DNA from: Candidatus Saccharimonadota bacterium
GTDB taxonomy: Bacteria; Pseudomonadota; Gammaproteobacteria; Enterobacterales; Enterobacteriaceae
NCBI RefSeq assembly: GCF_039383305.1
Contig: NZ_CP135010.1
Location: forward strand, 1-6,641
DNA length: 6,641 nucleotides
Reading direction: 5' to 3'
Shown here: positions 1 through 6,641 of the stretch, one piece after another
Numbering within the stretch: position 1 is the first letter of the stretch
Layout of the letters: each line of letters starts with the position of its first letter
Notes under the pieces: model-generated
What the model saw: only the letters and a program-made list of their open reading frames with translations
Told to the model about the DNA's origin: nothing
The model's database searches: none
Made by a program: the position numbers and the translations under genes

Positions 1-112
1 CTTTTTCTTCTTTTTTGTTTTTTCTTTTTCTTCTTTTTTGTTTTTTCTTTTTCTTCTTTTTTGTTTTTTCTTTTTTGTTTTTTCTTTTTTCTTTTTTGTT
101 TTTTCTTTTTTT
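1..112. repeat. 23-bp pyrimidine-rich tandem repeat, G-variant: CTTTTTCTTCTTTTTTGTTTTTT, 3 perfect copies (1-23, 24-46, 47-69), then truncated or degenerate units (CTTTTTTGTTTTTT at 70-83 and 91-104)
   Basis: Counted directly. Only 5 purines (G at 17, 40, 63, 77, 98) occur in 112 nt of the plus strand. It is the same unit family as the array at the window end. Confidence 0.95.
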
Positions 113-120
113 AAAGTAAT

Positions 121-181
121 ATGTTATTTTGCATCTATTTCTTAAGAAGCATGTATTTTGAAAAAGTATATGCATCTATTT
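121..181. repeat. Short direct repeats GCAT(C/G)TATTT at 131-140, 149-158 and 172-181, plus related ATGTTATTTT at 121-130, surrounding a 10-bp palindrome TTCTTAAGAA (139-148)
   Basis: Read directly. TGCATCTATTT is identical at 130-140 and 171-181. The palindrome was checked by reverse complement. Confidence 0.7.
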
Positions 182-205
182 TAAAAATATATAAATTTTT
201 TTTTA

Positions 206-239
206 TTTTTTTTTTTTTTTTTAATAAAAAAAAAAAAAA
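206..239. repeat. Inverted homopolymer pair T17-AAT-A14 (pure A/T, hairpin- or melt-prone)
   Basis: T run 206-222, AAT 223-225, A run 226-239, counted from the sequence. Confidence 0.9.
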
Positions 240-240
240 T

Positions 241-350
241 GAGAAAAAATGAGAAAAAATGAGAAAAAATGAGAAAAAATGAGAAAAAATGAGAAAAAAT
301 GAGAAAAAATGAGAAAAAATGAGAAAAAATGAGAAAAAATGAGAAAAATT
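241..350. repeat. 10-bp tandem repeat GAGAAAAAAT: 10 perfect copies (241-340) plus 1 variant copy GAGAAAAATT (341-350). Each unit carries an A6 tract.
   Basis: Counted directly. The array ends 19 bp from the repA stop codon (370-372). Confidence 0.97.
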
Positions 351-369
351 TTTTATAAAAAAAAATTAA

Positions 370-1203
370 TTATAAATTTGCTAATTTTCGTAATTTAAAA
401 TATTCAATATTCACCTGTCGTTTTAACGCATCCACGCCCATTTCACAAAGTTCTTCAATCGAATAACGTTTAATTAACATATTTAAAATATAAGAACGTG
501 CTTTTGTTTCTTTTAATTTAATAATTTTAATAGCATAATTTTTTTGTTTTTTTATTACATGTTTAAATTTTCTTGCTTGAAAAGCGTAATAAATATGTTT
601 TTCTTTAGCCCGTCTTTTAGCTTCTAAACTTGTAATTTTTTTTAAACCGTTTTTCAATAATTTTTTATTGATCCAATCTAATTGTCTTTTTCGAACTTGT
701 TTGAATTTCATTTTCGAAATGTTACATAATAAAAAAAATAAAGGAGTTAAAAAAATCATTTTAGGAATATACATACCTAAAACTTTATCCCATACTTTTT
801 CACATTTTACAAAACCCATCGGTTCCATAAATTGTGTAATTAAACGAGAAGCACGAGTAATAGATTTATTACCAGCTTTTGATTTAGTGGATAATCCACA
901 TTGATCAGAAAGTTTTTCTACAGATGCCATAACTAAAGTAGAAGCAATATTAAAATAATATAACATTGCTTGCACCATAGCACGAAAAGCTCTAGCTCGA
1001 TGTTCATTTAAACGTCTTAAACGAAAAATAGTTTTACCAGTTTTTAAATCTTTTAATTGTCTTGTATAATTAATTTCATGACGTGCTACATCTATTTTTA
1101 AAGCACATTTCATAGCATATCGAATAAAAGCCGGACGTTTTTTAGAATTTAATAATGGTACAAACATTGGATATGGATTATATACATATTTTTTTCTAGA
1201 CAC
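370..1203 (-). CDS. repA: Plasmid replication initiator, IncFII-family RepA (RepA1-like), 277 aa, GTG start
   Basis: By eye, YVYNPYPMFVP and the block QCGLSTKSKAGNKSITRASRLITQF...MYIPK align with R100/R1 RepA1 as I remember it (NPNPVFTP; ECGLATESAAGKLSITRATRALTFL; CYIPT). An in-frame TAG lies 3 codons upstream, so GTG at 1203 is the only start that keeps the conserved N-terminus. AGG (1211-1209) sits 5 nt upstream of the GTG. Confidence 0.9.
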   Translation of the reverse strand: MSRKKYVYNPYPMFVPLLNSKKRPAFIRYAMKCALKIDVARHEINYTRQLKDLKTGKTIFRLRRLNEHRARAFRAMVQAMLYYFNIASTLVMASVEKLSDQCGLSTKSKAGNKSITRASRLITQFMEPMGFVKCEKVWDKVLGMYIPKMIFLTPLFFLLCNISKMKFKQVRKRQLDWINKKLLKNGLKKITSLEAKRRAKEKHIYYAFQARKFKHVIKKQKNYAIKIIKLKETKARSYILNMLIKRYSIEELCEMGVDALKRQVNIEYFKLRKLANL

Positions 1204-1225
1204 TGTAACCTATACTTAGGCGGAC
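1204..1225 (-). promoter_or_regulatory. repA translation-initiation region: GC-rich box 5'-GUCCGCCUAAG-3' (1225-1215, minus sense), 3 nt, SD AGG (1211-1209), 5 nt, GTG
   Basis: Read directly. The box is an island of G/C in almost pure A/T. It is the reverse complement of part of the E1 loop (1338-1351), with a 2-nt bulge. Confidence 0.5.
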
Positions 1226-1307
1226 AAAAATAAAAAATAATTAGTAATACATATATTTTAAAAGAAAAAACTTTCTTAAAAAATATTAACATAAATTTCA
1301 AAAAAAA

Positions 1308-1372
1308 ATTTATATTTAAAAAACCAAATTTGTATCGGTCCGCCCCTAAAGTGGCAAATCTGATATTTTTTA
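1308..1372. promoter_or_regulatory. Element E1: ATTTATATTTAAA 13-mer, then a hairpin (arms 1325-1332 / 1355-1362, 7 of 8 pairs, 22-nt loop TATCGGTCCGCCCCTAAAGTGG). It is flanked by A6 (1318-1323) and T6 (1366-1371), so it looks terminator-like on both strands.
   Basis: Arms CAAATTTG and CAAATCTG were checked for complementarity. The loop is the only G/C-rich stretch in the 321-bp leuA-repA spacer. E1 is homologous to E2 at 3244-3321. It could act as the leuA terminator, as a repA leader structure, and/or as an antisense-RNA hairpin. Confidence 0.55.
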
Positions 1373-3247: not shown

Positions 3248-3320
3248 ATATTTAAATTTTTTTTAAGCCCTCAGAATTATATCAGGCCCGCCCAAGCATT
3301 GGTAATTCTGAGGGTTTTTT
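3248..3320 (+). ncRNA. Candidate small RNA of about 70-75 nt (element E2): AU-rich 5' tail, 12-bp perfect stem, 23-nt GC-rich loop, U6 tail
   Basis: The 5' end is predicted about 7 nt after the -10 at 3236-3241, and the 3' end at the T-run 3315-3320. There is no ORF. All boundaries are predicted, not observed. Confidence 0.4.
3268..3320 (+). terminator. Intrinsic-terminator-like hairpin oriented for the plus strand: CCCTCAGAATTA (3268-3279) / TAATTCTGAGGG (3303-3314), loop TATCAGGCCCGCCCAAGCATTGG, then T6
   Basis: The stem is a perfect 12-bp complement with three G:C pairs at its base. The T6 follows on the plus strand only. On the minus strand the stem is followed by CTTAAAAAAAA. Confidence 0.65.
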
Positions 3321-6461: not shown

Positions 6462-6522
6462 ATTTTAAATACTCAATTAAAATAAATTTTTATGTTTTTA
6501 AAAAAAATTTTTAAGAATTTTT

Positions 6523-6528
6523 ATTATA
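6523..6528 (-). promoter_or_regulatory. Possible -10 hexamer (TATAAT, minus sense) for leuBCD. There is no recognisable -35. The upstream DNA is the A-rich (minus-sense) repeat array.
   Basis: A perfect hexamer lies 62 nt upstream of the leuB ATG. The -35 position reads AGAAAA. This is weak evidence in AT-rich DNA. Confidence 0.3.
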
Positions 6529-6549
6529 TACTATTTTTTTCTTTTTTTT

Positions 6550-6641
6550 CTTTTTCTTCTTTTTTATTTTTTCTTTTTCTTCTTTTTTATTTTTTCTTTT
6601 TCTTCTTTTTTATTTTTTCTTTTTCTTCTTTTTTATTTTTT
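6550..6641. repeat. 23-bp pyrimidine-rich tandem repeat, A-variant: CTTTTTCTTCTTTTTTATTTTTT, 4 perfect copies (6550-6572, 6573-6595, 6596-6618, 6619-6641), preceded by T7-C-T8 (6534-6549)
   Basis: Counted directly. The last unit ends exactly at the last base of the window. The unit differs from the array at 1-69 at a single position (A versus G at unit position 17). Confidence 0.95.

Follow-up and report, generated by a model that had tools for sequence, protein, structure and literature searches.

The window, the whole 6641-bp stretch of DNA analysed here, is the complete pLeu leucine plasmid of Buchnera aphidicola of the aphid Nippolachnus piri. Its five genes all lie on the minus strand in the order leuB-leuC-leuD-leuA-repA (Table 1). 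The preliminary description of this DNA had taken the repA product to be of IncFII type, and this is confirmed by a match to Pfam PF02387 (IncFII_repA) that covers 274 of its 277 residues (E = 2.2e-131); blastn of repA against E. coli genomes gave no match. The sequence NZ_CP135007.1, in which repA is annotated as such, is 99.9% identical to the window over its full length, the two differing by substitutions at window 820 and 2365, both in unique DNA, and by 41 bp in an array of 23-bp units. Both ends of the window fall inside this one array, so the sole long non-coding region of the circle, 549 bp, runs from the repA stop (370) through the 1/6641 junction to the leuB start (6461).

Table 1. 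Features of the N. piri pLeu plasmid and related elements in other sequences
Feature	Sequence	Position	Strand	Description
leuB	window	6461-5376	minus	
leuC	window	5376-3985	minus	
leuD	window	3981-3358	minus	
leuA	window	3072-1525	minus	
repA	window	370-1203	minus	IncFII-family replication initiator, 277 aa, GTG start; stop codon 370-372
Hairpin	window	3265-3317		between leuD and leuA
Inverted repeat	window	1219-1234 / 1329-1344		just upstream of the repA start
Gap from repA stop to array	window	351-369	minus	19 bp
Variant eleventh unit	window	341-350		GAGAAAAATT, A5 tract
10-bp array, exact units	window	241-340		ten head-to-tail GAGAAAAAAT units, one A6 tract per 10.0 bp
A14T run	window	226-240		ends in array register; in right arm of the palindrome
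T-run/A-run palindrome	window	195-222 / 223-250		all-A/T, left and right arms
Origin core	window	123-177	minus	three boxes and AAAATAAC (123-130); conserved across replicons
Box 1	window	171-177	minus	AGATGCA
Box 2	window	148-154	minus	ACATGCT
Box 3	window	130-136	minus	AGATGCA
23-bp array, first half	window	1-111		far side of the origin core, A-rich flank; A/G-rich on the repA-sense strand
23-bp array, other half	window	6537-6641		across the circle junction
Origin core	L013	1934-1996		
Origin core	L014	1911-1977		
Kurisakia 20-bp array	L027 (NZ_CP135034.1)	7643-7690 joined to 1-77		likewise in L028
Metagenome decamer array	L016	9727-9776		
Metagenome decamer array	L017	1456-1521		
Metagenome decamer array	L018	7413-7482		

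Near its repA end the non-coding region contains an array of 10-bp units whose exact copies start at 241, 251 and so on to 331. The unit reads ATTTTTTCTC on the repA coding strand, where its tracts are T6. The earlier reading of ten copies without a single substitution plus one variant copy holds, both in the exact starts and in Tandem Repeats Finder (234-348, period 10, 11.5 copies, 100% matches, score 230), as do the A-run that precedes the array in the same register and the distance of 19 bp from the repA stop. Ten exact head-to-tail decamers are not attainable by chance. The gap next to the stop codon forms with the variant unit an all-A/T palindrome (AATTTTTT...AAAAAATT in repA sense), and no terminator with a G+C stem is present at 351-369. 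The array is identical in NZ_CP135007.1, its only second assembly among the matches listed; the same number of units there makes an assembly artefact private to the window unlikely. A literature search found no published description of this 10-bp array.

Two further structures accompany the genes. The inverted repeat upstream of repA has G+C-rich ends (GGCGGAC...GTCCGCC) that enclose about 94 nt of AT-rich DNA; it is probably the counterpart of the inverted repeat at the 5' end of repA1 in Tuberolachnus pLeu (PMC4898801) and is perhaps part of repA control. The hairpin between leuD and leuA contains G+C, has 15-nt arms (93% complementary) and a 23-nt loop, and is followed by a T-run on the plus strand, antisense to the genes. 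It may act as an attenuator, as a terminator of antisense transcription or as a processing site.

The origin core and the spacer that separates it from repA

The region after repA was compared, in repA sense, in 20 IncFII-family replicons, the relatives being gathered one by one from a plasmid collection, since a scan of genome contigs with RepA had yielded just one locus. Most of them have a core of three ATA(G/A)ATGC boxes 17-24 bp apart, with AAAATAAC after the last box and an A-rich stretch beyond it. The three boxes are common to the seven Buchnera pLeu plasmids of the first set and to seven more from later samples, with AAAATAAC after the third box in most, and are found beyond Buchnera in IncFII-family plasmids of Fukatsuia, Sodalis and Proteus; the positions of the core in L013 and L014 are listed in Table 1. 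In the window, box 1 is 193 nt past the repA stop and the core begins about 53 bp beyond the first exact array unit, the T-run/A-run palindrome separating the two. The array thus lies wholly between the stop codon and box 1, in the repA-to-origin spacer that is the counterpart of the IncFII CIS spacer. It had been presumed to be the origin itself, which has to be abandoned: the conserved boxes at 130-177, overlooked at the time, mark the origin core. On the basis of a conserved motif, Manzano-Marin et al. (PMC4898801) likewise located the origin of Tuberolachnus pLeu in the interval from repA1 to leuB. The palindrome next to the core (T9AT17 / AATA A14, 28-nt arms, 89% complementary) is a candidate for an element that melts easily or forms a cruciform, and in Cinara and Neophyllaphis similar T-run/A-run palindromes immediately precede box 1.

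Buchnera pLeu shares with the IncFII plasmids R1 and NR1 the RepA family and the position of the origin downstream of repA. In oriR of R1, a DnaA box is followed by boxes and then by an A-rich stretch (PMC5883639), an order that is matched in the relatives of normal G+C content. Candidatus Fukatsuia symbiotica p5D-2, the closest non-Buchnera relative (RepA 58% identical), has a perfect DnaA box, TTATCCACA, directly before the three boxes, and Sodalis pSG1 has TTATCCACC, a DnaA box with one mismatch, just before box 1. No DnaA box with up to two mismatches is found in window positions 1-420 and 6463-6641, and the count over the whole window is at chance level. The window therefore differs from R1/NR1 in that its DnaA box appears to have decayed, judging from the sequence, as well as in having nearly the whole spacer made of a perfect tandem repeat. 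An Rfam search of the window revealed no CopA-like RNA and no match at E <= 1, although a diverged homologue could be masked by the extreme AT bias.

In 12 of the 20 replicons box 1 lies 161-193 nt from the stop codon. The full range is 73-251 nt, with shorter distances in the Cerataphidini (Hormaphidinae) and Mollitrichosiphum (73-106 nt) and in Aphis glycines (148 nt), and longer ones in Schizaphis (220 nt) and Greenidea (about 251 nt). A strict constraint on spacer length, as the 175-193 nt of the first ten replicons would have had it, was ruled out by this wider sampling. The spacers are pyrimidine-rich on the repA-sense strand in all ten examined (56-73%) and, past the boxes, purines predominate in the next 60 nt in most replicons. 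The window is extreme in both respects, its spacer (181 nt in repA sense) having 22 C, no G and 73% pyrimidine.

Repeats are found on both flanks of the core. The 23-bp unit of the far side, GAAGAAAAAGAAAAAACAAAAAA in repA sense, is present in about 9.5 copies; the array is shorter and differently arranged in NZ_CP135007.1, and Tuberolachnus has only A-rich unique sequence at this site. The pLeu plasmids of Kurisakia onigurumii (NZ_CP135034.1 and NZ_CP135037.1) carry in the same repA1-to-origin spacer a perfect array of six 20-bp units, GTAAAAAATCTTCTATTGCT, with the same unit count in two strains that are 0.66% apart (46 substitutions). It resembles the Nippolachnus array in being perfect, in its length of about 120 bp, in the single A6 tract of each unit, in a period divisible by 10, and in the position of box 1, 190 nt after the stop. 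However, the two units are unrelated and the Kurisakia A6 tract is on the opposite strand. A 38-bp repeat directly follows repA in Ceratoglyphina, and Greenidea has an array of 9-bp units, (GATAAAAAA)n, past the boxes, about 340-385 nt after the repA stop. Together with the 23-bp array of Nippolachnus, the repeats of these three lineages indicate, at the level of sequence, that pLeu origin flanks are repeat-prone. The decamer GAGAAAAAAT itself is found in 5-7 tandem copies, in intergenic positions, in three unrelated AT-rich metagenome contigs. This rules out a decamer specific to the pLeu replicon and points to a generic expansion-prone motif of AT-rich DNA.

Predicted curvature of the array

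The helix axis was traced by a dinucleotide wedge model with Bolshoy-Trifonov parameters, absolute values being approximate. The bend amounts to 17-29 degrees per unit and to 190-320 degrees in total over the array, about 315 degrees with unscaled wedges and about 190 degrees with wedges scaled to the bend commonly quoted for an A6 tract, about 18 degrees. Along the array the curvature levels off at about 30 degrees per helical turn against a plasmid mean of 9.7 +/- 5.6, and the ratio of end-to-end to contour length in 120-bp segments reaches its minimum there (0.33; plasmid median 0.94, next lowest in the plasmid 0.72). In-place shuffles of positions 231-350 have a ratio of 0.92 +/- 0.05, compared to 0.385 for the real sequence, and setting the period to 8, 9, 12 or 13 bp removes most of the model curvature. 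The array is thus predicted to be by far the most curved part of the plasmid, while the neighbouring 23-bp array has no predicted curvature (2-12 degrees per turn).

Within the limits of a model, these results uphold the strong curvature proposed in the preliminary description. Its eleven phased A6 tracts are indeed phased, at exactly 10.0 bp, but the correct tally is ten tracts of A6, one of A5 and the A14 run. The superhelical twist that it expected is also found in the model, although it is not slight: the bend plane turns by -12 to -16 degrees per unit in every model variant, which describes a left-handed superhelix rather than a planar arc, because the period of 10.0 bp is below the helical repeat.

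The usual models of phased A-tracts are synthetic A6N4 repeats and the bend of kinetoplast minicircles. The Buchnera array has in common with them A6 tracts at about one helical turn, and differs in being a perfect 11-unit tandem on a bacterial plasmid, with a period of 10.0 bp and a left-handed superhelical path. A6 tracts spaced in this way are a classic cause of intrinsic curvature (PMC7229863). In plasmid pMV158, intrinsic curvature is located between two RepB-binding loci at the origin (PMC1851628). The curved DNA of Buchnera pLeu also lies beside candidate initiator-binding sites, but the pMV158-type bend belongs to a studied origin whereas the Buchnera array is lineage-specific and missing from sister plasmids. 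Curvature from phased A-tracts is a known kind of feature, as are bent DNA next to a plasmid origin and origin regions rich in repeats on Buchnera plasmids, and the array is an unusually clean new example.

Curvature of the spacer was ranked in other pLeu lineages, each within its own plasmid. It is in the top 0.2-1.2% in the Tuberolachnus plasmids, both of which have their most curved 120-bp segment directly after repA as well, and in the top 0.3-1.4% in Kurisakia, where it is weaker than in the Nippolachnus array (ratio 0.72-0.77 against 0.33-0.41). The rank is 6-35% in Cinara cedri, C. fornacula, Mindarus, Neophyllaphis and Acyrthosiphon pisum. Spacer curvature, as modelled, is therefore not generally conserved among pLeu lineages.

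How the array arose and what it may do

Three pLeu records of Tuberolachnus salignus were compared to the window and the array site was read in two of them, NC_013549.1 and NZ_LN890286.1. All three are about 81% identical to the window in nucleotide sequence (82% for RepA), with the same gene set, gene order and origin core. Neither the 10-bp nor the 23-bp array is present in NC_013549.1 and NZ_LN890286.1. The plasmids of T. salignus (pLeu, pleu-BTg) and of Cinara cedri (pLeu-BCc) share with the window the origin core and an origin that lies between repA1 and leuB, but differ from it in their spacer of unique T-rich sequence free of both arrays, the spacer of Cinara carrying in addition a small G+C hairpin. 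About 110 bp of the array align with unique Tuberolachnus sequence, gap-free and colinear, and the sole length difference in the alignment is 18 bp within the homopolymer palindrome. This implies a post-split origin of the array within the Nippolachnus lineage, in situ and with little lengthening of the spacer. Opposite the last array units Tuberolachnus reads ATTTCTAATTTTTT, a sequence that could plausibly be a seed-like motif for expansion. Since the array is missing from maintained sister plasmids, it is not a required element of the replicon; such an absence from normally replicating sisters had been named beforehand as evidence against an essential role or iterons.

The perfect identity of the units had been taken to mean recent expansion, ongoing homogenisation or selection, and comparison with Tuberolachnus agrees with the first two. 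Pairwise divergence between the two pLeu plasmids is about 19%. Several substitutions would be expected in 100 bp that had diverged since the split free of homogenisation, the probability of zero being exp(-100 x 0.095), about 7e-5. The uniform units would thus be either far more recent than the split or continually homogenised by slippage.

On balance we lean towards a young, lineage-specific array produced by slippage, which the fast-evolving spacer tolerates and whose curvature is a by-product. Identical head-to-tail units that are missing at the orthologous site of a sister plasmid, where a seed-like motif is found, are what slippage is expected to leave, and we infer both this origin and the neutrality of the array. 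Replication slippage from a seed like ATTTCT(A/C)ATTTTTT most likely generated the units, which would have replaced the non-coding DNA that separates the repA stop from the IncFII-type origin core. The array probably acts only as other spacers of the family do, keeping repA apart from the origin boxes, and on transcription would give the repA message a 3' tail of G-free, U/C-rich, unstructured RNA. Strong curvature would then follow from which unit happened to expand and not from a need of the replicon. If so, the three conserved boxes mark the origin of pLeu, repeat expansion freely rewrites what flanks the origin on a vertically inherited symbiont plasmid, and the array offers a handy length marker for Buchnera populations of N. 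piri.

Some observations sit uneasily with this neutral slippage array. Its copy number is 10 + 1 units in both assemblies (two only) while the neighbouring 23-bp array varies between them, a pattern not readily expected of free slippage. In Tuberolachnus, too, no part of the plasmid is more curved than the spacer, and Kurisakia has acquired independently a perfect 20-bp array with equal unit counts in two strains. Taken together, they faintly suggest that phasing or curvature is under selection in some lineages. A static bend of about half to a full turn in the 110 bp from the end of repA to the boxes could fold the site of RepA synthesis onto the boxes, favouring cis-action, or could stand in for the bend of a nucleoid protein lost from these very reduced genomes. 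The predicted bend is extreme and sustained, bends between initiator-binding loci are known in other plasmids such as pMV158, and Buchnera strains vary in the nucleoid proteins they keep, strain BCc of the Lachninae lacking HU (PMC3571970). We nevertheless consider selected curvature unlikely, as plasmids of sister lineages are maintained without the array, the spacer is unremarkable in five other pLeu lineages and the range of stop-to-box 1 distances shows that geometry is not conserved. Were it correct, the array would be a natural case of DNA shape as a conserved feature between an initiator gene and its origin, bearing on how the cis-acting IncFII RepA finds its origin, a question hard to study in an unculturable symbiont. 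A broader version, in which several Buchnera lineages have repeatedly remade the spacer into A6 arrays of 10- or 20-bp period by selection for a curved, left-handed superhelical spacer, strikes us as rather improbable; DNA shape, not sequence, would in that case be the conserved cis element of the replicon.

An equally doubtful proposal is that (AUUUUUUCUC)n in the 3' tail of repA is a Rho loading site that reproduces the Rho-dependent terminator which Masai and Arai are said to have reported in 1988 for the CIS region of R1 (cited in PMC3495755). A terminator in that region would be needed for cis-action of RepA and would keep transcription out of the origin, and the terminator scan downstream of repA in the window found no intrinsic terminator. 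A rut site spans at least 70-80 nt of unstructured RNA in which C far exceeds G. The array RNA has the rut-like traits of being G-free and predicted unpaired, and the pyrimidine bias of the spacers extends to clearly C-rich, G-poor ones in Sodalis and Fukatsuia. However, C makes up only about 12-20%, which is low for known rut sites, G equals or exceeds C in the spacers of C. cedri and Mindarus, and mutational skew could explain the strand composition equally well. Other pLeu plasmids have instead a small G+C hairpin and a T-run after repA1, and a rho-independent terminator of repA1 is reported in A. pisum (PMC3229713).

It is very improbable that the array is real but of a length merely estimated by assembly, short reads having collapsed or mis-sized a perfect repeat of about 120 bp and its homopolymers: the 23-bp array does differ by 41 bp between the two assemblies, yet these agree on exactly 10 + 1 units while differing by two substitutions. 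Least credible of all are decamers serving as iteron-like binding sites on one face of the helix for RepA or a host protein, an alternative offered in the preliminary description that draws its sole support from the regular 10-bp spacing and the nearness to repA and the origin, and that we reject since the units are missing from sisters with an 82% identical RepA, the initiator belongs to the IncFII and not to an iteron-type family, unrelated contigs share the same decamer array, and the conserved candidate RepA boxes lie elsewhere.
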